Positions 1,464 through 42,652 are shown, counted from the first letter of the stretch. The stretch: DNA of 64,000 bases from an uncultured virus (IMG/VR IMGVR_UViG_3300021400_000104) (IMGVR_UViG_3300021400_000104), one strand, 5' to 3'. Made by a program: numbers and translations. The notes: generated from the sequence alone by a model not told the origin.

Positions 1464-1534
1464 AATATCACCCCATATTTTTTACAATATGTGGCGAAAG
1501 CATAGAGCTTCCGCCACTATTAAAAGATATTTTA

Positions 1535-3502: not shown

Positions 3503-3519
3503 TTATTTCACCTCAATAA

Positions 3520-3912
3520 TTATTTATAAAATATAAGATTTTCCTTATTTACATTTGAAAGTTCACAACTAACCTTATTATTCCATAATATTCTTTCTTC
3601 TTCGGTTATATGAATAACTTGATTTCTAATATGATCGTAATAAACTTTATCAGTAAAAGGTAAATCTATTAAATATGCTTTTCCGTCTCCCAATTTAAAA
3701 CCTGGAATTGTAAGATTTTCATCAGTCATATAGTCTGTATATACATATAATGTATTTTTCTCCGAAATTAGAGATGTCTGATTATTCCAGTGTTCTGTTG
3801 TGTCAAATAATACAGGTAAATATTTGCTTGACATATACACTTTTAATTTACTAAAAAAGTATGCAAGTCCTTCTTTGTCAAGCCATTCATAATTTTCAGT
3901 ATTAATAATCAT
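3520..3912 (-). CDS. Tail-fibre-associated protein (KLGDG motif)
   Basis: Track ORF; ATG at 3912 after GGGGGTG. Motifs LDKEGLAYF, GFKLGDGK..LIDLPF and HITEEERILWNNK are common in phage fibre proteins. Confidence 0.6.
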   Translation of the reverse strand: MIINTENYEWLDKEGLAYFFSKLKVYMSSKYLPVLFDTTEHWNNQTSLISEKNTLYVYTDYMTDENLTIPGFKLGDGKAYLIDLPFTDKVYYDHIRNQVIHITEEERILWNNKVSCELSNVNKENLIFYK

Positions 3913-3930
3913 CACCCCCAATAATACGAC

Positions 3931-4437
3931 TTAATTAAATAAATCATCTATATAAGATGTTGGAATCGGTCTGGCTATTGAAATAAGATTTCCCTTTTCT
4001 ATATCTGCTGAAAAATTTTCCTAAATAGTAGGATATTCTGTACTTGGCTAAAAATCTTTTGTTGCTTGATATAATTGTCCAGTTTGTAAATAAATAAGCT
4101 ATCCTGAATTATAATTTTCATCAGCACTATACTTACGGACTTCCTCATTTTGAGATAAAGAGTATAAATACTCCCAAGTTTCTCCCTCATCATAGGATAC
4201 TTCAATTATATTATTTTGCTACCTAAGAAGTGGAGTTATTCCATTGTCTCCATTATAAACAGTAAATACGTTATAAGTTCTATCTGAGTATAAAATTTTA
4301 TAAGTATCTTTTGCTCCAGGTATCCCTGCTTTATCACCTTTATCACTAGATAAAAAAGTAACAGATATAATTTCTCGTCCACTTCCGCCCCCTCCGCCCC
4401 CTGAGCCAGACTTAGCAAAAGGATTAAATTGCCCCAT
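3931..4437 (-). CDS. Hypothetical structural protein, 168 aa (TAG read-through)
   Basis: ATG at 4437 with a GAGGTGA RBS; four TAG; TAA at 3931; Gly-rich linker. Confidence 0.65.
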
Positions 4438-4449
4438 TATTTCACCTCA

Positions 4450-4734
4450 TTAATAAATAATATAAAAATCTAAATTACAATTATTATCAAAAGTAAGAGA
4501 GTTAATTGCCATGTAATGACTTCCATCATAAGGAGTAATAAAATATCCATTACTTGGCACTTTATTTGGAACTTTATTTAATTTAAAAGTAGTTCCTGCC
4601 GCAGCCTCAAAGCCGATAAAATCAACAGAAAAACGAGTATTAAAATATCCATCTTCTTCATTTAAAATTTTATAAATTTTATCTAATACATTTTCTCCTG
4701 CTTCGGCATTTACAGTAACACATCTATATGCCAT
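4450..4734 (-). CDS. Hypothetical protein
   Basis: Track ORF of 94 aa with a GGAGGGG RBS. Confidence 0.7.
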   Translation of the reverse strand: MAYRCVTVNAEAGENVLDKIYKILNEEDGYFNTRFSVDFIGFEAAAGTTFKLNKVPNKVPSNGYFITPYDGSHYMAINSLTFDNNCNLDFYIIY

Positions 4735-4755
4735 TAAATCTCCCCTCCTATTTTG

Positions 4756-4968
4756 TTAAATATTTTTTAATTTTAATTTTAATTCTTTAATTTCTTCCTC
4801 TAATGCTTTAATCTTAAGGTGCAAAGAATCAATTTGTTCTCTTGCAAACTTATCTTTCAAATTATAACAAGTTTTTGGGCCTAAATTCCAATAGAAAGTT
4901 TGTACTGTGTCAGAATCATTTATGATGCTATTTATATCTTGCTCTTTTAAATTATTATTTTTATTCAT
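4756..4968 (-). CDS. Small coiled-coil protein
   Basis: Track ORF of 70 aa; YNLKDKFAREQI motif followed by heptads. Confidence 0.6.
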   Translation of the reverse strand: MNKNNNLKEQDINSIINDSDTVQTFYWNLGPKTCYNLKDKFAREQIDSLHLKIKALEEEIKELKLKLKNI

Positions 4969-5218
4969 TTAATTTCTCCTTTCCAATTTCATTAAAAAAT
5001 TCTTTAACTTTATCCATATCTTCTATATCATCTATAATAACAGAAATAGTATCATCAAATCTCATATTTGCAGACATAATACCGATTAAAGATTTTCCAT
5101 TTACTATTCTATCTCCATGAATAATTCTTATAGATGATGGTATTTGTTTTAAATTCCAATTTAATTGTGCCGCAGTTCTTGCGACTATATCTCTATCAAG
5201 TCTGTATGTAAGTGTCAT
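4961..5218 (-). CDS. HPr/Crh-family phosphocarrier-like protein (His15 equivalent is Val; Ser46 equivalent kept)
   Basis: Gapless match to HPr: IVARTAAQL vs IHARPATVL, and VNGKSLIGIMS vs VNLKSIMGVMS, with the same 31-residue spacing; 85 aa. Confidence 0.75.
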   Translation of the reverse strand: MTLTYRLDRDIVARTAAQLNWNLKQIPSSIRIIHGDRIVNGKSLIGIMSANMRFDDTISVIIDDIEDMDKVKEFFNEIGKEKLNE

Positions 5219-5236
5219 TATTTCATCTCCTTTAAT

Positions 5237-5265
5237 ATTTTAACACTCTGCAACGAAAAAGTCAA
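5237..5265 (-). promoter_or_regulatory. Sigma-A-type promoter (leftward, upstream of the HPr-like gene)
   Basis: Minus strand TTGACT-N17-TAAAAT with extended TG. Confidence 0.65.
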
Positions 5266-5291
5266 TTATTTTTAACAATATTAAAAAGAAA

Positions 5292-5320
5292 TTGACTTTT
5301 AAATTATTTTGTGATATTCT
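5292..5320 (+). promoter_or_regulatory. Sigma-A-type promoter
   Basis: TTGACT-N17-TATTCT with extended TG. Confidence 0.65.
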
Positions 5321-5348
5321 TAAAATAAGAAAAGTGAGGTGATTTGTA

Positions 5349-6254
5349 ATGAATTACAATATTGAATTGTACAATGCAAATTTAAGTTATAAGCCAATTT
5401 ATATGATGTCCTCAAAATTTTTAACGGAAGACTATGTAAATTGGATTATTAACAAAACAATGAATTCTTTTATTAAGAAATATGAAAATGCTTCTGATAA
5501 ACTTTTTATTTTAGACTATAAAGATGATCTTATTAGTGTTATCTGTTACAGAATGTTGAAAAATTTACAAAGCGTGTCTCCATTTAAATTTAATATAGCA
5601 ATTATGGGAAAGATTCATAAAACTAAACAATTTCTTCAAAAAGAAAAAAGAATTTATAAATGGAAACTTAAAAAATATTTAAAATCAAATTCTTGTGTTA
5701 TTATACAGGGATTTAACCCTCTATATAATAAAGTATTAAATACAAATATAGTCTTCAATGATTTCGATTGTCCAATTTGGAGACCTGTAGAAAACTATAC
5801 CCCTTTTGTTTTTGAAACTGCACAAGTTTTTTATCATATTGATTATATTCCACATGATATTATATTTGGACCTGATAATTATGAAGAAATGATGTCTTTT
5901 GATAAATGGTGCCGCGGCATAGAAAATTTTTACTATCCTTGTTTTGAGGATTATGAGAAAATCTATCAAATTGCTATGGTAAAATTAACAAATAATTTAG
6001 ACAAAGATATGAAACTTCTTAATGAAGTTGAAAATTTTGACGGAATTATTTTTTATTATTATGATGGAGAAATGCCTGCATTACTAAAAAGTGAATATAA
6101 TCTATTTTTAAAAAATTCCTGCAATATGCCAGGTTATAACAATATTAATAGTAGAATGGGATTAGATATTAGTGAAGATTATAAAGTACGTTATAACTTT
6201 TTTGGGGACTGGACAGATAGTCAAATTGAATATTACAAGGAGAATGAGAAATGA
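5349..6254 (+). CDS. Hypothetical protein, possibly degenerate PP-loop (TtcA/TilS-like) fold
   Basis: TAG-free track ORF of 301 aa. Weak resemblance only (LKNLQSVSPFKFNI; IWRPV); no SGGxDS motif. Confidence 0.55.
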   Translation: MNYNIELYNANLSYKPIYMMSSKFLTEDYVNWIINKTMNSFIKKYENASDKLFILDYKDDLISVICYRMLKNLQSVSPFKFNIAIMGKIHKTKQFLQKEKRIYKWKLKKYLKSNSCVIIQGFNPLYNKVLNTNIVFNDFDCPIWRPVENYTPFVFETAQVFYHIDYIPHDIIFGPDNYEEMMSFDKWCRGIENFYYPCFEDYEKIYQIAMVKLTNNLDKDMKLLNEVENFDGIIFYYYDGEMPALLKSEYNLFLKNSCNMPGYNNINSRMGLDISEDYKVRYNFFGDWTDSQIEYYKENEK

Positions 6255-6766
6255 AAATTTTTATTGTAAATGGTCAAGGTGGCGCAGGTAAGTCAACATT
6301 TGAATATATTATTCAAAAATATGCTTGGGAGGAAGATTTTAAAGATATTACGATTACTTCAATAATTGATCCAATAAAAGCAATCGCAAAAGAAATAGGA
6401 TGGAATGGAGGAAAAACAAATAAAGATAGAGCTTTCCTTCATGATTTAAAGGTATTACTACATAATTATAATAATTGCGATACAAAATATATTATAAATA
6501 AAATTAATAATGCCGAAACACTTAAGCGCGCAGCAATTTTTATTGACATGAGAGAGAAAGAAGATATTGCAGATTTTAAAGATTTGTTCCCAGAAATAAA
6601 AACCGTTCTTATTAAACGGGGAGAATTTTTCTCTTATGGGAATGAAGCAGATGATAATGTCTCGGATATTAATTATGATATTGTAATTGAAAATAATGGG
6701 ACATTAGAGGACTTTGAAAAGAAAGCGATTGATTTTTATAATAAGGAGATTTGTAATGGTATTTAA
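6251..6766 (+). CDS. P-loop nucleotide (dNMP-like) kinase
   Basis: N-terminal Walker A GQGGAGKS; IDMRE; C-terminal DIVIENNGT. Confidence 0.75.
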   Translation: MKIFIVNGQGGAGKSTFEYIIQKYAWEEDFKDITITSIIDPIKAIAKEIGWNGGKTNKDRAFLHDLKVLLHNYNNCDTKYIINKINNAETLKRAAIFIDMREKEDIADFKDLFPEIKTVLIKRGEFFSYGNEADDNVSDINYDIVIENNGTLEDFEKKAIDFYNKEICNGI

Positions 6767-7253
6767 GTATTATACTGATGGTGCTTGCACATTAAAAAAT
6801 GAAAATGGTGTGTATTCTAAAGGTCCTGGTGGATGGGCATACATCAGAATTCAAGATGGAAAAATTACAACATAGTCTAGCGGCGGCTCTAAGAAAACAA
6901 CAAATAATGAGTAGGAACTTACCGCTATTATGGAAGCATTAATTGATGCAGAGAAAGCGACCATTCCAGGTGACGAAATTGAAATCTATTCTGACTCTGC
7001 TTATTCAATAAATATTTATACTCAATGGATAAAAAACTGGGAGAAAAATGGTTGGACTCGCGGAAAGAAACATGAGCCAATTGAAAATTTATTTGTTATT
7101 AGAGATACTTATGACCTTATAAAGAGACTTGAAGAACAATTTATAAAAGTTACTTTTATTAAAGTAAAAGGCCACTCAACAGATAAATTTAATCAGTATG
7201 TCGATACGCTAGCAGTCGAAATGAAAATAAAAATGAGTCAAGCAAATGCTTGA
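6756..7253 (+). CDS. rnhA: Ribonuclease HI (TAG read-through)
   Basis: YTDGAC, GPGGWA, TTNNE[Q]EL, YSDSAY, KVKGH and N..VD.LA motifs; two TAG. Confidence 0.9.
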
Positions 7254-7278
7254 CTTTTCTTTTTATTTATGGTATACT
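7250..7278 (+). promoter_or_regulatory. Sigma-A-type promoter
   Basis: TTGACT-N17-TATACT with extended TG. Confidence 0.75.
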
Positions 7279-8451: not shown

Positions 8452-9081
8452 ATGGGTAGTAAAACTTTCATGACAATTGGCGCAGAAAATCATACGAATG
8501 AAACCCGACAAGCTGAAGATTTTTATTCAAGTGATCCTCGCGCGGCCTCTCATATTTTTTCTAAAATGCCTGAATTTTTATCAGCAGACAAAATTATTGA
8601 GCCTTGTGCTGGGAATGGCATATTAGCAGATTAGATAAAAGAGATAACCGGTAAGAATGTAGATATGTATGATTTAATTAAACGAAGAGATGATATTAAC
8701 ATTGCCAATTATTTTGACTTAGATATTAAAAATAAATATGATTTAATTATAACAAATCCTCCATATAAAAAAGGGACAAAAGCTGAACCTGGTCTTGTTG
8801 AAATGATTTTAAAAATGTTAGACGATATTAGACCTAATGGATATGTTGCATTACTTTTAAAAACTCTTCATTTAGAGTCTCAGGATAGGTATAATAGAAT
8901 TTTCTCGAGTAAGCCACCAGAAAAAATTTTCGTTTATGCGCCGAGGATTACTTGCTATAAAAATGGAGATATGAATATTTCTCAAGGGGCAATAAGTTAT
9001 TCCTGGTTTGTTTGGCATAAACAAGAAAATGGAGAATACTTAAATAAATCGGTTCAATTGGGATGGATTGAAAAACTCTGA
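8452..9081 (+). CDS. DNA amino-methyltransferase (N6A/N4C), TAG read-through
   Basis: Motif I EPCAGNG and motif IV NPPY are joined in frame across TAG 8632-8634. Confidence 0.85.
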
Positions 9082-9126
9082 TTAATCTGTTGAAGAAAGA
9101 ATCTTCATATTTCACTTTATTAAGAG

Positions 9127-9157
9127 AGGGAAGACTTAGAGTCTTCCCTATTTTTAT
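9127..9157 (+). terminator. Intrinsic terminator-like hairpin
   Basis: AGGGAAGACT-tag-AGTCTTCCCT followed by ATTTTT. Confidence 0.6.
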
Positions 9158-9173
9158 TAAAGAGGTGAGTTTC

Positions 9174-10010
9174 ATGAAAGAATGTTTTTTAACTCCAATT
9201 AATATTCCCGCGCCGCCACCTCATACTCAGATTCATCCAAGGTGTTTTACCTGTAAAAAATTTCCCGTATGCAATTTAAGGGAAGATTACCTTAAAACTG
9301 CATTGTTAATGCAAAGAGTTTTAGGGGATCCTTAGGAAGATAGAGAACTTGGATAGTTTGATTATAGATGTGGATATTTACCTGGATTTAAAGGGTATAA
9401 TTTTCATAAGCCGGATGATATTTTTCCAGAAGAAATCAAAACTACTGATAATGAAACTGGAAAATTTCTTGATGCTAAATGGAGAAATTTAAATATTGTA
9501 TAGTTCATCTATATTATTGAGAAATATTATGTTCGATTTGATGCTTTCTGGAATTATGAAGAAGAAATTTTTGAAATTAGAAATGGGCATGAAGTATATT
9601 ATGGTACTCCATATATATTAGAAACAGATTCAATAGTTACTATTACTTCTCAATTAGGGGTATGGAGAAATGAAATGGAAGAAAAAGAAAAGGAGAACGA
9701 AAATTATGATGTAATAAATACGACTTATTTTTCTGCTAATTTAAATTGTGACTTTTATGAATACGAGAAGGGATTAACAGAAGAAGAAGGAATTAGACGT
9801 ATGATTGCTCATTATCCGAAAGGAATTCCTTGTAAAGATGGAAGCTATTATCATTTAGCTACATTCCATATCGAACCATATAAAGTGCCGATGTACCACC
9901 CAGAAAATGGTAAAGTTGCCTTTGCCCCAATACCGTATCCCGTTTTTGTTCCATCTCCTTGTCCACCACGTCACGCTCACCCAAAACGTAGAGAAGATTA
10001 TGGAGATTAA
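9174..10010 (+). CDS. Hypothetical protein, 278 aa, with Cys and Pro-rich termini (TAG read-through)
   Basis: ATG at 9174 after GAGGTGA; joins track ORFs 9090-9335 and 9675-10010 across three TAG. Confidence 0.75.
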
Positions 10011-10416
10011 AACATCAAAAGGGGAACAAAAACTTATTAATTTATTCCGACGTGGAGGAATACAATTTATTAGAGAAGTAAGTTTTAGTGATTTAACTGG
10101 GAAGAAAAAAACATATCTTAGATATGATTTTGGATTATTCAAAAATAATAAATTAGTTTGTTTAGTAGAATTTGATGGTAAATAGCATTACGAATACGTC
10201 CCTTATTTTCATAAAAACTATTCAGGTTTTTTAAAATAGCAAGAAAGAGATAGGCAAAAAAATAGGTATTGTTTAATGCACCAGATTCCACTTATTCGTA
10301 TTCCATATTGGGATTTAGAAGAATTAACTTTAGAAAAAGTCTTAACAAATTCAGCATATAGAGTTCAAACAAAATATCATAATGATAATCTCATAAGAAG
10401 CGGGGTGAAAAAATGA
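10000..10416 (+). CDS. Vsr/DUF559-like PD-(D/E)XK endonuclease
   Basis: SKGE, LRYDF, VEFDGK[Q]H, RDRQKNRYC and LIRIPYW motifs; its TGA overlaps the next ATG. Confidence 0.8.
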
Positions 10417-10977: not shown

Positions 10978-11205
10978 GTGATTAAGATGAATAAGCCAGT
11001 ATTATATTCAACAGGTTGTCCAAAATGTAAAGTATTAGCAAAAAAGTTAGAAATGGCAAATATCGTTTATGAAATTAAGGATGATTTAGATTCTATTACA
11101 ACTCTTTGTGATTTTTTAGGAGCTACATCTTTGCCAATTTTAGAAGTCAATGGTACATACTTAAATTTTGGGGAAGCAATTAAATGGGTAGGTGAACAAA
11201 ATTAA
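10978..11205 (+). CDS. Glutaredoxin/NrdH-like redoxin
   Basis: YSTGCPKC and a cis-Pro SLP motif; directly upstream of nrdD. Start could be ATG 10987. Confidence 0.85.
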   Translation: MIKMNKPVLYSTGCPKCKVLAKKLEMANIVYEIKDDLDSITTLCDFLGATSLPILEVNGTYLNFGEAIKWVGEQN

Positions 11206-13142
11206 TGTAGATAAATGTAAAATTTGGAAAAAATTTTTAGACTCAACTAAATAGAATGTTAAATGATTATGGAACAGAATTAGCTACATTAAATGGTTTG
11301 GGCGATGAATAGCTCTCTTATGGAGATTTTATTGATAATTTTATTGACGAAAGCGTTGTTGCAGATGCAAGTATTGATTCTAATGCAAATGTACGTCGCA
11401 AGGACGTTGTAACTCTTCTCACTGAAATGCCTAAGCCACATAGAAAATTAATGGCTTTTAATAAAATTTATTATGAATTTTAGAAGGCTTATGGTTTTAA
11501 AGCTGCAAATGATTGGTTAAAACGCGAATGGGTAGGTGAATTATATCTACATGATGCAGATACTTCAACTTTTAAGTCATATTGTTTTGCCTATGATTTA
11601 AAAGACTTAGCAGAAAAAGGACTTTACTTCCTTGGGGATAACTTCAATCCAAAGCCTCCTAAGCATTTGACAACTTTTATTGACTTTGTGAAAGAATTTA
11701 TTAATTTTGCTAGTAATCGTACTTCAGGTGCAGTCGGATTACCTAATCTAATTCCTTATATGTATTATTTCTGGAAGCAGGACGTAGAAAATAATTATTT
11801 AGGAATTCAAGATGGAGAGTCTTATGCAAGACAAAATATTTAGCGCTTTATCTATGCGGTTAACCAACCTTGCGTAAGAGACGGATAGCAATCTGCTTTT
11901 ACTAACACTTCTGTTTTTGATAGAGAGTATTTAATGGCATTATTTGGTGGAGCAGAATTCCCAAATGGAGAATTTATGGTCGATCATATTGAAGGAATTA
12001 TGGATTTCCAGAAGCTATATATGGAAGTAATGGCAAATGTAAGAAAAGAAAATATGTTTACTTTTCCTGTTTCTACAATTTCTATGATTAGAAAAGATGG
12101 AAAATTTGTTGATGAAGAGTTCTCTAATTGGGCGATTGCTCATAATATGTAGTGGTCTGATTCTAATCTTTTCATTGATGATAATGTTTCAAGTCTCTCT
12201 AATTGTTGCCGCCTCAAGAGTGATATTAAGGACCTTGGCTATTTTAATTCTGTAGGCGGTACTGCACTTAAGGTCGGTTCTATTAAGGTTAATACAGTAA
12301 ACTTTGCTCGTCTTGCTCTTGATACTAATAGCACAGAAGAGTTCTTTGCTGAACTTGGAGAAAGAACTTTGTGCGCGATTAGAGCACTTCATGTCGTTCG
12401 TCATATTATTAGAAGAAATGTAGAAAAAGGACTCCTTCCAAACTTTTCTTATGGCCTAATTGATTTCAAGTCTTGTTATAATACAATTGGCTTTATTGGA
12501 ATTTATGAAGCTCTTAAAAAGTTTGGTTTCACTTATCAGGATAAACTCGGTAATACCTATTATACTAAAGAAGGAGAAGACTTTGGTGAGCGTATCTTTA
12601 AGGTAATGAGAGAAGTAGCAGATAACTTCATTAAGGAAAATGAATGTGATTATATGATTAACACAGAATAGATTCCGGGTGAAAATGCTGCGGCAAAGCT
12701 CATGAGAAAAGATAAATTCTTCTATCCCGAAGCGAATATTTATGATTTACCGCTTTATGGTAATCAGTTTATGCCGCTTGGCGTTAAAGCAACTCTTTAG
12801 GAAAGAGTTCGTGTGCAGGCTCTGTTTGATAGCTTCTGTAATGGCGGCTCTATTCTTCATGCTAATATTGATGCTCCTTTCAAGAATTTTGAAACAGCAA
12901 AGAAAATGGTTGAATATATTGCCGACCAGGGCGTAACTTATTTTGCTTTCAATACAAAGATTTAGGCTTGCGAAGACAATCATGCTTTCTATGGTACGAC
13001 ATGCCCGATCTGTGGGAAGCCTATCGCGACTGAATATACAAGAATCGTTGGATTCCTTACTCCGATTAAAAGTTGGACAAAGGAAAGAAAAGCAGAGTAT
13101 AAAATGAGAAAATGGGAGAAAGTTAATAATGAATAGAATTGA
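11205..13142 (+). CDS. nrdD: Anaerobic (class III) ribonucleoside-triphosphate reductase, no ATP-cone
   Basis: LYLHD, YCFAY, QSAFTN, FTFPV, SNCCRL, E[Q]IPGE, C-terminal Zn site and the glycyl-radical loop RIVGF. 11 in-frame TAG by manual count, including codon 2. Confidence 0.93.
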
Positions 13143-13683
13143 TAGAGAAAATGAATATGGAATCAAGGAAGTCCCTGATGTTTTTATCTGTGATGAAAAT
13201 GGAGAAATCTTATATTATTCGAGAACATTAAAAAGAGTTGACTTTACTCCATTGTCTCCATTGTATGGGAAAGAGAAATGGCAATGCTCTATTATGGGAG
13301 CATTAGGAAACCTTGAAGATTGGTATCATATTCCATACGATGAAAGAATAAAGACTTTTTATTTTAGAACTTTTAAAAGGAATAGAGATACTGGAAAAGA
13401 TGAACCATTGTGTTTTGCAATTTCTCCTTTAGAGATTCTTATCCAACCATTTTCTCTTGTCGCGGATGGCGATCCATTTACTTTTCCAATCACTTTTTAT
13501 TTTCGTTCTCATAATCTTATTTGGATAGATAGTGAAAATTGTCCTAATTATGAAATTTCTTTCGAGGAATAGGAACTTCAATCTTATGCTAAAATTACTT
13601 TTTTAAAGCCAAAGAAAACTTTTTCAGAAATTAAAGTTAATAATTGCAAAGAGAGATTAAGAGAAATAAGAGGTAATAAATAA
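13129..13683 (+). CDS. Hypothetical protein
   Basis: Track ORF extended through TAG 13570 to TAA 13681-13683. Confidence 0.65.
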
Positions 13684-15486: not shown

Positions 15487-16446
15487 ATGACAGATTTAAT
15501 CATATTAGGTAATGGAATGGCAGGTATGACTGCTGCGCTTTATGCAAAACGTGCAAATCTTGACTTTAAAATCGTTGGTAAAGATGAATATGACTTTGGT
15601 CAAATTGGAAATGCTGTTCTTGTAGAAAACTATCCTTGCGCCAATAGTCAAACTGGTTTTGATTTGGCTATGAGTCTTCATAATCAACTTGAAGCTAATG
15701 ATATTAAAGTTGAAGAGCACGAAGTTATTTCTGTTGAGAAGGCTACTGGTCTTTTACCTTTGCCTTTTATTGTTGAATATGCAGATGGTACTGTGGATGA
15801 AGCAAAAAGTATTATTTATGCTCTTGGCGCGACCCCTTATAAACTAAAATGCGAAATAGAAACTGGAGTACCTATTCATTACTGCGCGGTTTGTGATGGA
15901 CCACTTTATAAAGATAAAACTGTTGCTATTATTGGCGGTGGCGATGTAGCATTTACCCAAGCAGAATATCTTTCTAAGATTTGTAAACAAGTATCTATTG
16001 TTATGTGTGATAGAAATGTAACCGCCGCGCCATCTACTTTTGAAAGAGTGTCTAAAATTAAAAATATAAGAATTATTTATGATTTTGTTATTAATGAAAT
16101 CGCAACAAATAAATTTTATATTGTTGATAATAATAATGAAGGACATAGGTTCATTATATCTCGTCAAGTTCCTGATGATGGAAAAGCCAGATTATTAGGT
16201 ATAAGTGCAGATGGAATTTTTGTTGCAATTGGAATGAAGCCTAATATTGCTCCTCTTGATATTTTCTTGGACTGTTGGGATGAAAAAGGACATATAATTA
16301 CGGATAATGAATGTGGAACAAAATATCCTGGCCTATTTGCTGCTGGAGATATAAGATAGAAACAAGTTAGACAGGCGATAACAGCTGCTGCTGATGGAGC
16401 AATTGCTGTTCAAGGAGTTATTAATTACTTAAAAAGTCAAGATTAA
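15487..16446 (+). CDS. trxB: Thioredoxin reductase
   Basis: GNGMAG, CAVCDG, GGGDVA and GDIR[Q]KQVRQAITAAADG motifs; single TAG at 16357. Confidence 0.92.
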
Positions 16447-16450
16447 ATTC

Positions 16451-16479
16451 TTGACTTTTTTTCCATTTTATGATATAAT
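16451..16479 (+). promoter_or_regulatory. Sigma-A-type promoter
   Basis: TTGACT-N17-TATAAT with extended TG. Confidence 0.8.
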
Positions 16480-16501: not shown

Positions 16502-18364
16502 ATGGAGAATAATTATGGTATTGAAAATATTGAGCATCTTGAAACAAGAGAGGCAATGCGTACTCGTATTCAAATGTATCTTGGTTCAGATGATACCGAG
16601 GGAATTTATCAAGCTCTTAAAGAAATTATAAATAACTCAACCGATGAGGCTCTTGCTGGTTATGGAGATAAAATTTGTATTCTTCTTGATGAAGAAAGCA
16701 ATACTGTAACAATAAGAGATTTTGGTCGAGGAGTCCCTTTTGGAATAAAAGATGGTAGAAATATTCTCGTGGCAATTTATACTGAAAGTCATACTGGCGG
16801 TAAGTTCGATAAGAATGCTTATAAGAATAGTTCTGGTCTTAATGGTATCGGAGGTACTGCAGTTTGTATGTCTTCTTATAAATTTCTTGTTAAATCTGAG
16901 CGCGATGGAAAAGCGGCAATGGCAGCTTTTGAGCAAGGGATTCTTAAAGATTACAAAGAAGTTGAGTATACCGGAATAACAACTGGCACTACAATAACTT
17001 TCCGTCCAGATGAGGAAGTCTTTATTAATGCAACTGAAGGCTTTTCTTATGATAGAATTTGTGAAGAAATTAAAAATATTTCTTACTTGAATAAAAGAAT
17101 TCATTTTATTGTCGAAACCACTTCTGGGAAAAAGCAAGAATATTATTCTGAAAATGGTATTGCAGATTTTATTACAGATAATGTAAAAGACCCACTAATG
17201 AATGCCCCAATTATTGTAACAAAGAAAGATGACGTAGACGAAATTGAAATTGCTTTCATGTGGACTGGTGGAAGTGAAAGGTCTTACGTTTTTGTAAATG
17301 GACTTTATTGCCCAGAAGGCGGTGTTCCGATTACAGGAGCTAAAACGGCAATTACAACAAGTATGAAACGTTTAAGCGGTCAAGATTTTGACCCCGACCT
17401 TATTAGAAAAGGTCTCGTTTATGCTATTAATTGTAGAGTTGCAAATCCATCTTTTGCAAATCAAACTAAGAGCAAGATTAACAATCCAAATTTGAGGACA
17501 TTAGTCTCTGCTGCTTTTAAGGAAGGACTTGAAGACTTCTCTCATACTCCAGACTTTGCAGCAATTGTAGAAATGATGAAGCGTTTTCAAAAAGCTGAAA
17601 AAGCAGCAGACAAGGCTCGTCAGGATGCTCTTAATCGTCAGAAGAAAATGAGTGAATTAAGAAGTAAAAAGATTGCCTTTATTGATAAGTTATCCGATGC
17701 AGAAATTCTCGGAGAAGATTCCATCTTGTGCGTTGTAGAGGGAGATTCTGCAGGTAATGCTGCCGCGGCAGGTAGAGATGCAAAGAAATATGGTATCGTT
17801 AGACTTCGTGGTAAGATGATTAATGGACTTAAGGAAGATGATGATAAAAAGTTCTACGAGAATAATGAAATTGAACTTCTTCTCTATGCGCTCGGTATCG
17901 ATCCAGATAGACCTGATCCTAAGAAATTAAGATATGGTAAAATTGCAATTTGTGTCGATGCGGATGATGATGGACACCATATTGCACTACTCATTCTCGC
18001 AAATCTTCATAGAATTTGTCCATGGTTCTTAAAAGAAAATAGAGTTTTCTGGCTACGTTCTCCTTTGTTTATTGAGCAGGATAAGAATGGTAATCCTTTA
18101 AGCTGTTATTATTCTGATGACGAATTTGACAAGGTAAGAGGAACTTTAAAGGGATATATTAAGCGTGTAAAAGGACTCGGACAGCTTAATGAGCGCGACC
18201 TTAAGGCAACTATGTTCTCAACAACTGGTAATCAGAGAATGGATCAGATTATCTATTCTGAAGAGGGCATCGAGCAGCTTTGTCAGTTAATGGGTGTTGA
18301 TATAAAACCAAGAAAAGATTTTGTATTTTCTCAGATTGACTTTTCAAAATTTGGAGCTACTTAA
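16502..18364 (+). CDS. gyrB: Type IIA topoisomerase B subunit (GyrB/ParE-like)
   Basis: EIINNSTDE, DFGRGVP, HTGGKF, GLNGIG, EGDSA, LRGK, DADDDG and KGLG motifs. Likely start ATG 16502 after GAGGTGA; TAG-free. Confidence 0.92.
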   Translation: MENNYGIENIEHLETREAMRTRIQMYLGSDDTEGIYQALKEIINNSTDEALAGYGDKICILLDEESNTVTIRDFGRGVPFGIKDGRNILVAIYTESHTGGKFDKNAYKNSSGLNGIGGTAVCMSSYKFLVKSERDGKAAMAAFEQGILKDYKEVEYTGITTGTTITFRPDEEVFINATEGFSYDRICEEIKNISYLNKRIHFIVETTSGKKQEYYSENGIADFITDNVKDPLMNAPIIVTKKDDVDEIEIAFMWTGGSERSYVFVNGLYCPEGGVPITGAKTAITTSMKRLSGQDFDPDLIRKGLVYAINCRVANPSFANQTKSKINNPNLRTLVSAAFKEGLEDFSHTPDFAAIVEMMKRFQKAEKAADKARQDALNRQKKMSELRSKKIAFIDKLSDAEILGEDSILCVVEGDSAGNAAAAGRDAKKYGIVRLRGKMINGLKEDDDKKFYENNEIELLLYALGIDPDRPDPKKLRYGKIAICVDADDDGHHIALLILANLHRICPWFLKENRVFWLRSPLFIEQDKNGNPLSCYYSDDEFDKVRGTLKGYIKRVKGLGQLNERDLKATMFSTTGNQRMDQIIYSEEGIEQLCQLMGVDIKPRKDFVFSQIDFSKFGAT

Positions 18365-18393
18365 TTGACTTTTTAAATAAAAAATGATATACT
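18365..18393 (+). promoter_or_regulatory. Sigma-A-type promoter
   Basis: TTGACT-N17-TATACT with extended TG. Confidence 0.75.
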
Positions 18394-18420
18394 AATTATA
18401 GATTAAAAGAGGTGAGAAAT

Positions 18421-20790
18421 ATGAATATTGACCTTTTGAGTGTCGTAAATGAAAGTTTCGGTATTTATGCCGGAATGACAATTGAAGATAGAGCTATTGT
18501 TGATGCGCGGGACTGTATGAAGCCTGCCGCGCGTCAATGTATGTATGCTCAGATTCTCGAAAAGATTACTTATAAAAAGCCATTTAAGAAATCTCATAAG
18601 TCAGTCGCGGCGGCAATGGATCATTTCTATGTTCATGGTGATCAGGCCTGCTATGACCTTTTAGTAAGAATGGCACAGCCATTTAGCTTAAGGTATCTAC
18701 TTGAGGACTTTGACGGACAGTGCGGTCATGTTACCAATGGTAAAGCGTCTGCAGCCCGTTATACAGAAATGAGAGTAGGAGAACTTGGGTGTCTGCTTTT
18801 CGAAGGCGTTGACAAACATTGTATTGATGAATGGTATGATAACTATGATGATACAGAGCAGTTTCCCGGAGTAACTCCATCGCTTGGTTTTTATAATATT
18901 TGTAACGGTACGACCGGTATTGCGACTGGTCTTGCAAGTTCTATTCCTCAGTTTAACTTAACTGAAGTTAATGAAGCTATGATTAAACTACTTTGGAATA
19001 GAGATGCTGACTATGACGAAATCTATTGTCCGCCAGATTTTTGTACTGGAGGAACAATTCTTAATGCGTCTGTAGTTAAGGAACTTTTAAAGGTTGGTCG
19101 CGGCGGGTCTATTAGACTTCGTAGTACAGCAACCTATGACGAAAAGGATAATTCAGTTATCTTTACAGAAATCCCATATGGTGTTCATGTAGGGAAAATC
19201 ATGGAACAAATTGAAAGCCTAATAAATAGCGGAGAGCTATTGGGTATTGCAAGAGTTCTTGACCAATCAACAGCGAAATCTCAATTGAAGATTGAGCTTG
19301 AAAAGAATACAAATCCTTCTCGTCTAATTAAACAATTATTTAAGCTGACTTCTTTGGAAGAAAGTTTTACAATTAATATGGTAATGCTTGAAAATGGGCG
19401 CTTCCCTCGTGTTTATGGCTGGAGAGATGCCCTCTTAGCTCATATTGACCATGAGATTAATTGTAAGAAAAAAATGTATCAATGGGATTTGGATAAGATT
19501 GCCGCGAGAGTTAATATCATTGACGGTCTTCTTATTGCAATTGCTAATATTGATGATGTTGTTGAAATTATTAAGACAGCAGATAATAAAGCGGATGCAA
19601 AAGAGAAGTTGACTTCAAGGTATGGTTTTAATGAAGAGCAGTCTGATGCAATCTTAAAAATGCCTTTGAGCAGGTTAATCGGATTAGAGATTCAATCTTT
19701 AAAAGATGAAAAAGAAAAAATTCTTGGTGAAGCGGAACAGATTAAAAAGATTCTTAATGATAATTCTCTTCTTTATAAAGAAATTGAAGAAGGAATGCGA
19801 AAAGTCATAAAGAAGTTTGGAGATGAAAGAAGAACTCGTTTAATAGATTTGGATTTTAAAGGAGAAGCAGAGGATGCTGAGCCTATTGAGAAAAAGGAAC
19901 TTCTTATCTATTATACAAATCTTGGTAATATTTATACTCAAGAATCAACAACTTTAGTAAAAACAAAGCGTGGTGGCAAGGGAACTAAGATTAAACTCGC
20001 CGATAATGAAGCTATTATAAAAACTATTAGTGATAATAACTTTAGTTCTTTACTTATCTTTTCTAATAAAGGACAAATGTATCATCTTTCAATTGATGAT
20101 TTATCTGTTAATGCAAAGGTGAATGTAGCTCAGCTATTTGATTTTGAACGTGGAGAAAAGATTACCACTATTACCTCAATTAATCGAAGAACAGAAGTCA
20201 AATACTTTATTTTTATTACAAAAAATGGTATAATAAAGAAAACAATGGCAGAAGAATATGACCACAAGCGAGGTAAATCACTTAAGGCTATTAACCTTAA
20301 AGACGGCGATGAAGTTGTGAACGTTCTCTTTATGAATGATGAAAAAGTTGGTATATTGACTTACGATGGAAATTATGTTATAATTAATACTGATGATATA
20401 AGAGCAATTGGTCGTGCTGCGGCAGGCCAAAAAGCGATTAAATTGTCTGATAATAATTATGTAATTGATGCTAGAGTTATTAAACCAACCGACAAATATA
20501 TGATCACACTATCTGAACGAGGTCTAATCAAAAAAACAACGCTTGAAGAATTTCCTGTTTGCAATCGTGGCATTAAGGGGAAATTAATTTCAGGAACTCG
20601 TGATGGAGATAGAATAGTGAAATATTTGACTTTAGATGCAGATTGTGATATAATTATTATAGTAAAGCGAAAGAGCATTAAAATTTCAACATCAGAATTA
20701 AGAGTACTTTCTCGTTTTGCAACAGGAGTAAAAGCTATTGATATAGCTGAAACAGATACTGCATCTGATTTAATCAGGAGTTGTGATTAA
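18421..20790 (+). CDS. gyrA: Type IIA topoisomerase A subunit (GyrA-like, with beta-pinwheel CTD)
   Basis: DCMKPAAR, HGD, catalytic AARYTE, GIATG, TEIPY and GyrA-box-like KRGGKG; ATG at 18421 after GAGGTGA; TAG-free. Confidence 0.92.
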   Translation: MNIDLLSVVNESFGIYAGMTIEDRAIVDARDCMKPAARQCMYAQILEKITYKKPFKKSHKSVAAAMDHFYVHGDQACYDLLVRMAQPFSLRYLLEDFDGQCGHVTNGKASAARYTEMRVGELGCLLFEGVDKHCIDEWYDNYDDTEQFPGVTPSLGFYNICNGTTGIATGLASSIPQFNLTEVNEAMIKLLWNRDADYDEIYCPPDFCTGGTILNASVVKELLKVGRGGSIRLRSTATYDEKDNSVIFTEIPYGVHVGKIMEQIESLINSGELLGIARVLDQSTAKSQLKIELEKNTNPSRLIKQLFKLTSLEESFTINMVMLENGRFPRVYGWRDALLAHIDHEINCKKKMYQWDLDKIAARVNIIDGLLIAIANIDDVVEIIKTADNKADAKEKLTSRYGFNEEQSDAILKMPLSRLIGLEIQSLKDEKEKILGEAEQIKKILNDNSLLYKEIEEGMRKVIKKFGDERRTRLIDLDFKGEAEDAEPIEKKELLIYYTNLGNIYTQESTTLVKTKRGGKGTKIKLADNEAIIKTISDNNFSSLLIFSNKGQMYHLSIDDLSVNAKVNVAQLFDFERGEKITTITSINRRTEVKYFIFITKNGIIKKTMAEEYDHKRGKSLKAINLKDGDEVVNVLFMNDEKVGILTYDGNYVIINTDDIRAIGRAAAGQKAIKLSDNNYVIDARVIKPTDKYMITLSERGLIKKTTLEEFPVCNRGIKGKLISGTRDGDRIVKYLTLDADCDIIIIVKRKSIKISTSELRVLSRFATGVKAIDIAETDTASDLIRSCD

Positions 20791-21191
20791 TGGTTCAAGA
20801 TGAAAAAAATTAGTTAATTAAGGATAATAAAGATGCCGCAATCGCGGCTCTTAATTCAGTCCTTGATAATATATATGAGCTAAATGAAAAATTTTTTGAT
20901 GAAAATGGTTAGCTTATTCCAGATTTAACATATGATGAAAAGGCAAAAGATTTTATTATTGAAATTAGGAAAGATGCTCCTAAATATGAAAAACTTAGAC
21001 GAAAAATGATTGATGGTGACTTTAATTTGTCTCTCGCTGAAACAGCGAGAATAGGTTTAGCTTTTATGTATATGCATCTTACTATTGAAAAATAGATAAA
21101 TCTATTAACTCAAGTAAATCAGAAATCAAAAGATATTATGTCAAAGTTAATAAATTCAGATAATGAAACAATTGACTTTTCTCAAGAATAA
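20790..21191 (+). CDS. Hypothetical protein (TAG read-through)
   Basis: ATG overlaps the gyrA TAA; open to TAA 21189-21191 if TAG is sense. Confidence 0.65.
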
Positions 21192-21200: not shown

Positions 21201-21292
21201 AAATATGTAAAATAAATAGCACAATGCGGAAACCCCGCCTGCTATTTTATTATATAATTTTAATTTTACTAATATTTAAGGAGTGATTTTTA

Positions 21293-21586
21293 ATGGCAAA
21301 GACTAAGATGACTGAGGGTTCAAGAAAGGTATTTGAGTATTTGAAGGCAGCAGGTGCTGGAGTAAAGTTTACTACTAAGTAGGTGTAGGAGGCTCTTGGA
21401 TTTGACAAGGCAGGTTCTGTAACTGGTTCTGTAACTGGACTTTGCAAGAAGGGCTATGCTGAGCGCTTTACCGAGACTGAGGAGTATGTAACTGAGAAGG
21501 GTGAGACTAAGACCAGAGAGGTTAAGTATTTTGCTCTTACTGAGGCCGGTGCTAATTTTGATCCTGACGCTGAGGTAGAGGAGTAA
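21293..21586 (+). CDS. Small winged-helix-like DNA-binding protein
   Basis: MAKTKMTEGSRKVFEYLK...EALG...SVTGSVTGLCKKG...YFALTEAG fits a wHTH pattern; AAGGAG RBS; two TAG. Confidence 0.65.
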
Positions 21587-21601
21587 TTTAATTCCACAGT
21601 A

Positions 21602-21625
21602 ATAGGGGCAGGTAACTGCCCCTAT
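21602..21625 (+). terminator. Stem-loop (terminator or stabiliser)
   Basis: ATAGGGGCAG-gtaa-CTGCCCCTAT; weak U-tract. Confidence 0.5.
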
Positions 21626-21671
21626 AATTAAAATTAACTATTGATTTTCTTAATAAAGGAGTGTTTAATTA

Positions 21672-22562
21672 ATGTATGATGTAAATAAGTTGAGTACAAA
21701 TGAAATTTATGTAAGTGGTTTGTTAAAGGAACTTGAGATTGTTGAAGGTTAGACTACTGATGGAAGAGAATATGTCCGTGGGACTGCATCTGTATAGGTA
21801 GATTAGGAAATTGATGGGAAGATGGTAGAGAATATTATTCCTGTAAAGATGTTTGCTATGAAGTATAAGAATGATAAGTCTCCAAATCCAAATTATACAA
21901 GAATCCTTGGATATAAGGATTAGTTTACCTCTGCTGCCGCAGCGGAAGATGAAAGTAAGGCTTCTCGAGTAACTATTAGCGGCGCATAGGTTGAAGAGAA
22001 TGCATGGTATGATTCTAGAACTGATATTGTTCGTTCAGGTTTTCAGCTTAGCGGTAATTTTATTAATAAGCAAAAGGATTCTGACCGTGAAAAGGCAACT
22101 TTTAATTTATCAGGTGTTGTTGGAAAGATTCGTCCTGAAATTAACAGAGACGGAGAAGAGACTGGAAGAACTATTGTTGATTTTATTGTCATTACCTGGG
22201 GCGGCAAGGCCAATAAGATTGAGCTTATTGCGAAGGGTAGCGCGGCAGAGTTCATTTCCACTAATTGGAATCAGCAAGATACGGTTAATGTTACAGGCCG
22301 TATTAATATGACTCATAAGACTGAAGAGATTGAAATTGAGCAGGGATTCGGTGAGCCACTTGTTCAGACAAGAACTATCTCTTGCAGAGAACTTATTATC
22401 ACTGGTGGTTCCCCTAGTGGCCTCGAAGAGGCACTTTCTTATGATGCCGATTCTATTAAGCAAGCTCTTGCTGTAAGAGCAGCAAATCATGAAGCTCTAA
22501 AGAATAAGCCTTCTAATACTAAGTCTTCTAATAAGAATAAGCCCGTAGACTTTGGATTTTAA
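21672..22562 (+). CDS. Putative OB-fold single-stranded DNA-binding protein
   Basis: 296 aa with TAG read-through; beta-rich, C-terminal ...DFGF tail; lies just before the Sak4-like ATPase. Confidence 0.6.
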
Positions 22563-22606
22563 TCCAAAGTCTACTACTTAAATTCTTAGAATGGAGGGGT
22601 ATAATA

Positions 22607-23584
22607 ATGGCCATTGATTTACTTTCACTTGAGCCACAATAGATAAGTAAAAATCTTCGTGGTAAATATATAATGCTTTATGGACTACCTGGCGTTGGAA
22701 AGACAAGCCTTGCGGCCCAATTTGATAAAGTGCTTATTGCAGGATTTGAAATGGGTACCAATGCGTTAAATAATGTTTACGTTTAGCCAATTAAAACCTG
22801 GCAAGATTGGAAGCAAATGGTTAATTAGCTGTGTAGAAAGGACGAATTGAAGGAAAAGTTCCATGCAATTGCCATTGACACAGCAGATGAGGCTTGGTCG
22901 CTTTGTTCAAAATTTATTTGTAATTAGAATGGGGTAGATGAGCTTAGAGACCTCCCTTGGGGACAAGGTTATGATCTTGCAAAGAAAGAGTACGCTTAGA
23001 CTTTTAGAGATTTGGCATATAATGGATATGGATTAATTTTTACAAGTCATTCAACTGAAAAGACATATAAGGATGAAAAAGGGGAAGAATATACTATGAT
23101 TGTCCCAGCTCTTCCTGCTAGACCTTTTGATATTATCAATAAAATGGTAGATATTATTGCTTATATTCGTGAAATTTCTATTCCAGTTGGCGAAAATATT
23201 GAGCGGAAAAGATTTATGTTCTTAAGAGATGAAGTAGGAGATAGATTCTTAGCCAAGTCTCGTTATCAATATATTACACCAAGAATTTCACTTGACTATA
23301 ACTAGTTAGTAGATGCAATCTATAATGCAATTGATGAGGAAGTTTCTCATACTGGCGGTGTTGCGACTGAAGAAGTTAATCCTTATACACAGAAAGCTGA
23401 TTTTGATGAATTAATGGAAGAAGCAAAAGTATTATGGGGATAGCTTGTTCAAAAAGACTTACATAAAAAGGCAGCAGAAATTCTTGAACAGGAATTTGGT
23501 AAGCCAATTAAGTTTAGTGAAATATTGCCTGAATAGGTTGATATTCTAAGTAAAGTTCTCTATGAAATTAGATCTATGCTTTGA
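22607..23584 (+). CDS. AAA_24 / Sak4-like recombination ATPase
   Basis: Walker A GLPGVGKT, IAIDT, WGQGY, FTSH and VDIIAY motifs; multiple TAG. Confidence 0.8.
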
Positions 23585-38993: not shown

Positions 38994-39719
38994 ATGGGAA
39001 ATAGACTTAAAATTGAAGATGTAAAATAGAATATAGAAAGTCAAGGTTGGCATTTAATTTCAGAAGAATATATTAATTTAAAAACTGACCTTCAGGTAAA
39101 ATGTCCTGAAGGTCATGATTGCTTTGTATCTTATGATAAATGGAGAAAAGGAACTTTTGAATGTCCTATATGCAAATAGAACCAATATTATAAAACAGAT
39201 AATATTGCCACAAAGAAAAAAGGATATAGAATATTGGCTTTTGATCAAGCTAGTATAACTTCTGGATGGGCAGTTTTTGATGGAGAAACATTGATTAAAT
39301 ATGGAAAGTGGACTTCTGAAGGAACTCATAGTACGGAACGTATCGCAAAAACAAAATATTGGATTGCTGGAATGATTCAAAAATGGTAGCCTGATTAGGT
39401 TATTTTAGAAGATATATAGCTTTAGAAATTTAATGACGCCGCGGAAGGAGTTACAACATATAAAAAATTAGCTCATTTACAAGGAGTATTAAAAAATTAT
39501 TTATATGAATAGCAAATAGCATACACTGTTGTTCCACCGGCGACTTGGCGTGCATATTCAGAAATTAAGGGGAAAACAAGACAAGATAAAAAGAAAAATG
39601 CCCAACTTAAAGTCAAGCGTTTCTATGATGTTAGTGTTACTCAAGATGAAGCAGATGCAATTCTAATTGGTCGTTGGGCAATGCACTAGCACAAGTCTTC
39701 AGAAATTATTGAATTTTAA
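38994..39719 (+). CDS. ruvC: RuvC-like Holliday junction resolvase with N-terminal zinc ribbon
   Basis: CPEGH...CPIC, then ILAFDQAS..SGWAV, VILED, LQGV, PATWR and DEADA; eight TAG. Confidence 0.8.
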
Positions 39720-42011: not shown

Positions 42012-42245
42012 TTATCTCAACATTTGCATAAAGGAGTTAAATTCTGAATTAAAGTCGAGTCCTTTTTGTGCAAAAATTGAGGAAGCAAGATTAACTAAAT
42101 CATTTGTATTGCCGCCTTGAGCAAATTGAATCATCTATTTAACTCTTGGATCTGTAATTTGATTATTTTTTAACATAGATAATACAAACTGCTATGGGTC
42201 GCGGCCTTTAACAAGCTATACTAGCTAAGACATATTCTACATCAT
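42012..42245 (-). CDS. Small Gln/Met-rich hypothetical protein
   Basis: MM[Q]NMS[Q]LV[Q]LVKGRDP[Q]Q...; its ATG overlaps the upstream TGA. Confidence 0.65.
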
Positions 42246-42652
42246 AATGCCCAATCCTCCCCTTTCTTTTCAGATTTCTTAAAACGTGCCTCGATTGCGG
42301 AAATTTTTTCGATACATGTATTAAGCTGTTCTTGTAATGTTTCAATTGTAGGAGCCGTATTTTTTTCTTCCTACTATTGCTATTCGTTTGTAAAAGGAAT
42401 AATTTTATATGGATAAAACAAAGGGTTCCCATTTTGCATAGTTTTAATATACATCACATTTTCTGGCAAACAAAGAGCTATTGATACGCCGGCACCACAA
42501 GGAACATTAGCAACTTCTAAAGTTGAATTAATGTTATAAACATTCCCTTGCGGTTGTGGAAAAAGCGGCTATATTTGCTATTGCTACTATCCATTGAGTT
42601 GCATATTCTACTAACCTGTAAGAGATTGCTATGGCTAAAAACTAAATGCCAT
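42242..42652 (-). CDS. Gln-rich hypothetical protein with C-terminal coiled coil
   Basis: GGAGGTGA RBS; Gln-rich tract of mixed TAG and CAA codons. Confidence 0.7.

Follow-up and report, generated by a model that had tools for sequence, protein, structure and literature searches.

TAG avoidance in the gyrase genes of a gut siphophage that reads TAG as glutamine

Introduction

Partial recoding of a stop codon has been described in gut phages, where it would gate translation (Borges et al., bioRxiv 10.1101/2021.08.26.457843). In the phages covered by the main text of that work, TAG stands for an amino acid, the structural and lysis genes are heavily recoded, and some genes stay compatible with the standard code. 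Block-wise dual coding has been reported for crAss-like phages (Yutin et al., Nat Commun 2021, PMC7886860; Mgcod preprint 10.1101/2022.06.29.495998), and a Phassvirus group of ~135 kb phages, predicted on Clostridia, is described as reading TAG as Gln with a suppressor tRNA(CTA) (PMC10607447). Here we analyzed 64,000 nucleotides of DNA from an uncultured virus (IMG/VR IMGVR_UViG_3300021400_000104), referred to as a whole as the window, with a focus on its adjacent gyrB and gyrA genes (together gyrAB). An earlier note, made from the sequence alone, had proposed that TAG-free genes next to TAG-rich ones form a code-based timing switch in this DNA. We show that TAG avoidance in gyrAB is codon-specific, statistically significant and conserved among related phages.

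In-frame TAG is absent from gyrB and gyrA

Open reading frames (ORFs) of at least 100 amino acids covered 37% of the 64-kb window under the standard code, 94% with TAG read as Gln, 44% with TGA read as Trp and 76% with TAA read through. The coverage of 94% against 37% indicates that the phage reads TAG as glutamine. In aligned orthologs, 321 of 892 cells facing a window TAG (36%) held CAA, CAG or TAG, the corresponding values being 41% for CAA and 40% for CAG, and the other cells facing TAG were mostly E, K and N. Over 50 genes, TAG accounted for 348 of the 802 Gln codons (43%). The window comes from a gut siphophage with TAG=Gln recoding. The features on which the comparison of gyrAB with the rest of the window rests are the following.

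16502..18364, plus strand: gyrB, 620 amino acids, 16 Gln codons (7 CAA, 9 CAG, 0 TAG), stop codon TAA
18421..20790, plus strand: gyrA, 789 amino acids, 19 Gln codons (10 CAA, 9 CAG, 0 TAG), stop codon TAA
7309..8439, plus strand: ATP-dependent DNA ligase gene, 0 of 6 Gln codons TAG (p=0.10 singly)
5349-39719, plus strand: replication and nucleotide-metabolism arm (replication arm below), starting with a 301-amino-acid ORF and ending with a RuvC-like resolvase gene
39747-63919, minus strand: late arm, with an M23 peptidase, large tail proteins and a 2551-amino-acid tape measure protein

The two gene products are predicted to form a bacterial-type DNA gyrase, a type IIA topoisomerase. GyrB carries the Pfam domains HATPase_c, DNA_gyraseB, Toprim and DNA_gyraseB_C, and its best PDB matches are gyrase B (2.8e-75). 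GyrA carries DNA_topoisoIV (9e-95) followed by three DNA_gyraseA_C repeats, and its best PDB matches are gyrase A, spanning residues 4-787. The GyrA translation also contains the motif KRGGKG, a putative GyrA box.

The earlier note had counted 35 Gln codons in gyrB and gyrA without a single TAG, and our counts reproduced this (0/16 and 0/19). In the 30 other genes of the replication arm, TAG took 106 of 306 Gln codons, against 0/35 in gyrAB (P=3.4e-7; Fisher 1.2e-6). The same note had suggested a per-gene TAG comparison, and across all 50 genes homogeneity of the TAG share was rejected (chi2 104.8, df 48, p=4e-6). Within the replication arm, gyrA (Bonferroni 0.016) and gyrB (0.058) were the only single-gene outliers, and once gyrAB were removed the heterogeneity of this arm became merely marginal (p=0.03-0.04). 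By gene class, TAG took 221 of 406 Gln codons (54%) over the ten late-arm genes, 69 of 197 (35%) in the replication genes, 0 of 35 in gyrAB and 0 of 6 in the ligase gene.

The ratio TAG/(TAG+CAG) was 0.74 in the other genes and 0/18 in gyrAB (P=4e-11), and CAG appears to be the codon that TAG replaces. Out of frame, TAG occurred at 7.5 per kb in gyrB and 9.7 per kb in gyrA, compared with 11.2 per kb elsewhere; this ordinary density indicates that only TAG in the reading frame is avoided. It is well supported that selection acts against TAG codons in gyrB and gyrA, and the same selection probably extends to the ligase gene.

Recoding among related phages points to a fixed order

Searches with GyrA yielded 17 viral, 24 metagenomic and 3 genome-collection loci; apart from a 134,765-bp contig of the window phage itself (L090, 100% identity), the best gyrA in these collections is at most 74% identical. 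When the window GyrB and GyrA were used as tblastn queries, none of the matches in 46 of 46 related loci contained an in-frame TAG, although many of the 46 loci are redundant, coming from the same phages. The window was compared with six relatives whose genomes are complete or nearly so (G001, G007, G002, G004, G006 and G003). The overall TAG share of their Gln codons was 26% in G001, 26% in G007, 18% in G002, 14.5% in G004, 8% in G006 and 4% in G003, against 43% in the window.

When the orthologs were divided into classes and listed in the order window, G001, G007, G002, G004, G006, G003, the following values were obtained.

Late arm, TAG share of Gln codons: 54, 35, 51, 24, 17, 7, 1%
RuvC: 44, 29, 64, 36, 56, 8, 0%
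Replication and nucleotide metabolism: 35, 4, 6, 2, 1, 1, 0%
gyrAB, TAG per Gln codons: 0/35, 1/30, 0/28, 0/32, 0/29, 1/25, 0/28
DNA ligase: TAG = 0 in the window and in all six relatives

The late arm exceeded the replication genes in all five relatives with in-frame TAG. The two TAGs found in gyrA lie outside its conserved body, at codon 786 of 790 in G001 and at codon 18, ahead of the aligned part, in G006. A second heavily recoded phage, L112, showed the same contrast as the window: TAG was found in 0/17 Gln codons of gyrB and 1/17 in the gyrA exons, against 47/131 (36%) in the neighboring genes (gyrAB 1/34, Fisher 4e-5), and the sole gyrA TAG lies three codons before the stop. Taken together, the comparison points to a fixed order of recoding, with the late genes and RuvC first, the replication genes later, and gyrase and ligase never, an order that would fit a code-based partition of early and late genes.

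A tRNA(CTA) is encoded by three of the six whole relatives (G001, G004 and G007) and was not found in G002, G006 and G003. The value of 4% for G003 comes from a TAG-blind ORF caller, and this phage, without a tRNA-CTA, is effectively standard-code. The gyrases of G003 and of the L003/L091 loci are 66-77% identical, with no in-frame TAG in the genes examined, so that standard-code and recoded phages coexist in one family. In L112, gyrA is split after ~167 codons by a 1.2-kb insert (8785-10015) that contains a GIY-YIG homing-endonuclease-like ORF with TAG at 6 of its 11 Gln codons, while the flanking exons have no internal TAG.

Other TAG-free genes and their TAG-bearing neighbors

Besides gyrase, the ligase gene and several small genes are free of TAG, and they lie close to genes in which TAG is frequent.

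4961..5218, minus strand: HPr-like ORF, 0 of 2 Gln codons TAG
5349..6766, plus strand: 301-amino-acid ORF and deoxynucleoside monophosphate (dNMP)-kinase-like ORF, 0/7 and 0/2 TAG, not significant
10978..11205, plus strand: thioredoxin-like ORF (redoxin), 0 of 1 Gln codons TAG, uninformative
11205..13142, plus strand: nrdD, 11 of 22 Gln codons TAG, the contrast gene of the same arm
20790..21191, plus strand: 133-amino-acid ORF, start-stop overlap with gyrA (TAATG), TAG at codon 8 and in 3 of 7 Gln codons
32348..36298, plus strand: DNA polymerase III alpha gene, a low 5 of 34 Gln codons TAG, and 0 in the orthologs of five relatives
38994..39719, plus strand: RuvC-like resolvase gene, 8 of 18 Gln codons TAG, TAG-rich in 4/4 clearly recoded relatives

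The counts for the ligase gene, the 301-amino-acid ORF, the kinase, the HPr-like gene and the redoxin (0/6, 0/7, 0/2, 0/2, 0/1) agree with their TAG-freeness as first noted. The 301-amino-acid ORF on its own reached p=0.07, and pooling it with the kinase and the ligase gave 0/15 (P=0.0017), a grouping picked post hoc. In G001, the ortholog of the 301-amino-acid ORF has TAG at 9 of 18 Gln codons, and HPr orthologs with a TAG occur in three recoded relatives, so the TAG-freeness of these two genes is not conserved. For HPr, redoxin, kinase and 301-amino-acid ORF alike, the lack of TAG is indistinguishable from chance. The idea of TAG-free islands thus holds for gyrAB, on both statistics and conservation, and is not supported for these four genes, which have too few Gln codons.

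The TAG-rich side of the contrast, namely RuvC with 8/18 and the tape measure, tail and M23 genes, was found as the earlier note had described it. The late genes reached 92/168 in the tape measure gene, 15/25, 22/40 and 48/82 in tail protein genes (the 48 TAGs belonging to a 1922-amino-acid tail protein) and 11/22 in the M23 gene. The nrdD gene opens with ATG TAG and has TAG at codons 2 and 12; its N-terminus is homologous to that of relatives, and under the standard code it would be a start-stop. Early genes in which TAG serves as the true stop with a back-up stop nearby numbered 1-4 per recoded genome, too rare for a test.

Promoters and the position of TAG within genes

An extended -10 promoter of the sigma-A type, TTGACTttt-N-TGnTATAAT, occurs 13 times in the window, compared with 0.94 times in shuffled sequences, and downstream of every copy lie a Shine-Dalgarno sequence and an ATG. 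The two copies that serve gyrAB are these.

16451..16479, plus strand: gyrB promoter, extended -10 sigma-A-type, TTGACT-17-TATAAT with TG; its -35 lies inside the 3' arm of a hairpin at 16431-16460
18365..18393, plus strand: gyrA promoter, extended -10 sigma-A-type

Such promoters stand directly upstream of HPr, the 301-amino-acid ORF, the ligase gene, the redoxin (with nrdD), gyrB and gyrA. It had been claimed that every TAG-free gene lies just behind one; this is correct for these six, and the kinase departs from it as the second gene of its operon. It had also been pointed out that the genes after the promoters at 21172, 24917, 31391 and 37220, which are of the same type, contain TAG, and they do. 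The presence of this promoter as a mark of TAG-free genes was consequently rejected. On the coding strand of the late arm no sigma-A-type promoter of this kind was found. On these grounds the promoter separates the replication arm from the late arm, and not TAG-free from TAG-bearing genes.

In the genes of the replication arm, TAG is shifted toward the 5' end, with a position of 0.418 against 0.521 for CAA/CAG (Mann-Whitney U test, p=0.007; homology-supported parts, post hoc). Four relatives gave similar values, 0.415 and 0.513 (p=0.006), and the bias was absent from the late arm. This is a modest extra sign of gating, and the overlap of the gyrA stop with an ORF that has TAG at its eighth codon is likewise gate-like.

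Several further observations concern the promoters themselves. In several of them, at 16431-16460, 7235-7256 and 5230-5330, the -35 (CTTGACT) also forms the 3' arm of an inverted repeat or hairpin, AGTCAAG...CTTGACT, and the divergent promoters at 5265 (minus) and 5292 (plus) have one inverted repeat in common; these overlaps may be terminator-promoter units or an operator. Full-consensus promoter-like sites also lie within the 3' part of gyrA, at 20356-20384 and 20626-20654, and G001 has one ~170 nt before its gyrA stop as well; they may drive the downstream TAG-bearing ORF separately. In relatives with direct terminal repeats, the same promoter type forms terminal clusters of about one per 0.5-1 kb (G001 155-180 kb, G007 170-186 kb, G004 0-16 and 172-180 kb, G002 4-19 kb), whose arrangement is like that of regions for host takeover in large phages of Firmicutes. 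This terminal promoter-dense region lies outside the window, and a simple ORF caller handles the many small ORFs there poorly.

Possible reasons for TAG avoidance in gyrase

From these results we infer expression timing as the selective reason for TAG avoidance in gyrAB. On the whole reading, for which we estimate a probability of roughly 55%, gyrAB are kept TAG-free so as to be translatable by the unmodified host, in line with the published model of the code as a gate. The phage would be a siphophage of ~135-180 kb that infects low-GC Firmicutes and decodes TAG as glutamine. TAG would have spread first through the virion genes, the lysis genes and the RuvC resolvase gene, and next through most replication and nucleotide-metabolism genes, as in the window phage and L112, with the gyrase pair and DNA ligase remaining unrecoded throughout. 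Purifying selection would remove in-frame TAG from gyrB and gyrA, most likely because these proteins have to be made by unmodified host machinery, before or independent of amber suppression by the phage, and TAG-bearing genes, even on the same transcripts, would be completed only once suppression works. The recoding order from late to replication genes, with gyrase and ligase never included, is what would be expected if TAG blocks translation until suppression acts, as the published model has it. The gating proposal of the earlier note is accordingly supported in part: in-frame selection in gyrAB and the recoding order within the family speak for it, and the small islands do not.

Several points weigh against this reading. 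In the window phage TAG is present in the genes for DnaB, primase, Pol III alpha and NrdD, so suppression must work before replication, and an earlier need for gyrase is not obvious. The strong sigma-A promoters are identical in type before TAG-free and TAG-bearing genes, and gyrAB are not transcriptionally marked as earlier. The gyrAB of the lightly recoded relatives are no TAG-poorer than the rest of their replication arm, which leaves the gyrase-specific signal to the two heavy recoders. The 5' bias of TAG had the same direction in L112 but was non-significant there, and the bias test was post hoc. No suppressor tRNA lies within the 64-kb window. Contigs from RNA libraries (X1-X3, two studies) match parts of the ligase gene, nrdD, gyrB and 21331-23473 at 100% identity, but as bulk-library assemblies they carry no timing, strand or gene ranking, and the parts they leave uncovered are uninformative.

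The strongest rival, which we consider unlikely though well ahead of the other two, is that truncated products are toxic. Incomplete suppression would yield truncated GyrA or GyrB, subunits of an A2B2 enzyme that cleaves DNA, or truncated ligase, and these would be dominant-negative or DNA-damaging, so that TAG would be excluded regardless of timing. For the gyrase-specific part of the pattern this fits equally well as timing does: gyrase and ligase alone avoid TAG where it is present in the other replication genes, Pol III alpha is TAG-poor too (5/34 here and 0 in five relatives), and the TAGs tolerated in the gyrA ORF 3-4 codons from the stop would be harmless if the protein were truncated there. 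However, the tape measure gene with 92 TAGs and the 1922-amino-acid tail protein gene with 48 imply efficient suppression, and other multimeric enzymes that act on DNA (DnaB, primase and RecJ) tolerate TAG even near their starts. Toxicity of truncated products also leaves the TAG-free replication arms of the lightly recoded relatives unexplained.

Recent acquisition of gyrAB and the other TAG-free genes from a standard-code bacterium or relative, with too little time for TAG to appear, had been named as an alternative by the earlier note; for gyrAB it is largely refuted, and we regard it as very improbable. In its favor, standard-code or TAG-free relatives are known (G003 and the L003/L091 loci). 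L091 is relatively nearer to the window in gyrAB than in the neighboring genes (path 0.43 vs 0.80, compared with 0.47 vs 0.60 for G001), and some mosaicism was seen for G006, L092 and L112. However, over 1404 aligned columns no known gyrAB comes closer than 74% identity, and the end branch of the window is 0.16. No close bacterial gyrase was found in the collections searched: the three genome-collection matches to GyrA are phage-sized contigs (163-180 kb, 48-66% identity) binned with metagenome-assembled genomes of Clostridia, Erysipelotrichaceae and Eubacterium, and GenBank phage GyrA matches reach at most 34% identity.

Synteny is kept in the related loci as gyrB-gyrA-ORF-ORF-AAA_24-PhoH-HTH-DnaB-primase-RecJ (HTH, helix-turn-helix). 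A gyrA/gyrB phylogeny had likewise been suggested, and in both the gyrB+gyrA tree and the tree of the five neighboring genes (AAA_24+DnaB+primase+RecJ+PhoH) the window grouped with G001 and L091 (quick IQ-TREE runs; support by the Shimodaira-Hasegawa-like approximate likelihood ratio test, SH-aLRT, 99 for both clades). Synonymous codon usage scored without Gln (leave-one-out) was ordinary, with z=-0.77 for gyrB and z=-1.18 for gyrA, in the range of nrdD, recJ and Pol III; the genes at 3-1463 and 21293-21586 are the genuine outliers of the window. The nrdD gene, 80-82% identical to its L003 and G007 orthologs, has 11 TAGs against 0 and 2, which means that TAG accumulated next door at equal or greater divergence but not in gyrAB. 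At conserved Gln sites of gyrAB, CAA and CAG are mixed between relatives, which shows that these codons have turned over, and the same avoidance is seen in L112 and in all 46 loci. We conclude that gyrB and gyrA are core genes of long standing that were inherited vertically.

Chance or mutational lag, the least probable explanation, in which TAG has simply not yet arisen in gyrB and gyrA, is compatible with the small TAG-free genes (0/1 to 0/7) but is rejected for gyrAB, where the probability within their own arm is P=3e-7 with 18 CAG codons available and the pattern is repeated in L112 and across all relatives.

Returning to translation by the unmodified host, a more specific version can be imagined, which we put forward as speculation with little weight. 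In this phage family, gyrase and ligase might be the genes obligately required before the switch, although we think this doubtful. On this equally doubtful view, the phage's own enzymes would have to seal the terminally redundant genome after injection and supercoil it negatively before the suppressor tRNA and other genes can be transcribed efficiently. If this were true, DNA topology would act as a gate on the very change of genetic code, and such a dependency would forbid TAG in gyrase and ligase however far recoding spreads.

Further features of the window

The remaining layout of the window is as follows.

1-5218, minus strand: left arm, tail-fibre-like genes and the HPr-like gene
5349-39719, plus strand, gene order of the first half of the replication arm: 301-amino-acid ORF, dNMP-kinase-like, RNase H, ATP-dependent DNA ligase, methyltransferase, thioredoxin-like ORF, NrdD, NrdG, GIY-YIG, TrxR-like
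The same arm from gyrB onward: gyrB, gyrA, AAA_24, PhoH, HTH protein, DnaB, primase, RecJ, Dam, HNH, Pol III alpha, ClpP, dUTPase, RuvC-like resolvase

The 64-kb window contains no tRNA genes, and an Rfam scan at the gathering threshold gave no matches. Two tail-fibre-like genes in 3-3502 have the N-terminus MADISKI in common. One of them, at 3-1463, has a GC content of 0.43 and atypical codon usage (z=-3.2), which suggests that its receptor-binding module was exchanged, yet it has TAG at 4 of 12 Gln codons. In codon usage, a 97-amino-acid ORF at 21293-21586 is the most atypical of the window (z=-3.5, GC 0.45, TAG in 2/2 Gln codons). It is overlapped by a long antisense ORF at 21250-21597, and the RNA-library contigs include this stretch. 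A Gln-rich late protein of 136 amino acids (42242-42652) has TAG at 11 of its 21 Gln codons and, at 81 TAGs per 1000 codons, is the densest in the window.

One RNA-library contig (run X1) joins position 13126 to 13683 with five other letters between them, and thus represents a contig without the 184-amino-acid ORF at 13129-13683 that abuts the end of nrdD. Either a mobile insert or presence/absence variation would account for the gap; no intron or ribozyme that would explain the skipped 13127-13682 was found by Rfam at the gathering threshold. A related strain in run X5 (90-99% identity) has TAG at 8881, in the methyltransferase gene, where the window has CAG, a direct case of the CAG/TAG exchange that speaks for TAG as a Gln codon. 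None of the 40 differences listed, among 281 in this strain, falls in gyrAB.

Comparison with known systems

The idea of a timing switch has already been published by Borges et al., and the present case leaves that model unchanged. Further likenesses to their phages, as far as the main text describes them, are the suppressor tRNA(CTA) in relatives, the existence of standard-code relatives and the gradual spread of in-frame stops. They differ from the window in that most replication genes are recoded here (35% of Gln codons), and the compatible remainder consists of gyrase and ligase; Borges et al. do not use the word 'gyrase' in their main text. In the main texts of the literature searched, we found no statement that gyrase is spared the recoded codon.

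As in the crAss-like phages, to judge from the published abstracts, the lightly recoded genomes G002, G004 and G001 combine a replication part free of TAG with a late part that is recoded. Unlike them, the present phages belong to another phage group and host phylum, and the window has no clean block boundary, the two sorts of genes being interleaved within operons. The Phassvirus group, going by the main text of PMC10607447, resembles the window phage further in having TAG in virion genes and some DNA-processing genes. It differs in showing no gyrA kinship (the best GenBank phage match being <=34%), and the same text mentions neither gyrase nor ligase.

What this family adds to the published systems is a graded natural series, within one phage family, from the standard code to heavy recoding. 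The series shows the order in which genes take up the reassigned codon, and those that stay free of it throughout, and this order is a testable prediction of the proteins that are needed before, or without, suppression. The series also points to gyrase and ligase as helpful markers for annotating mixed-code phages.

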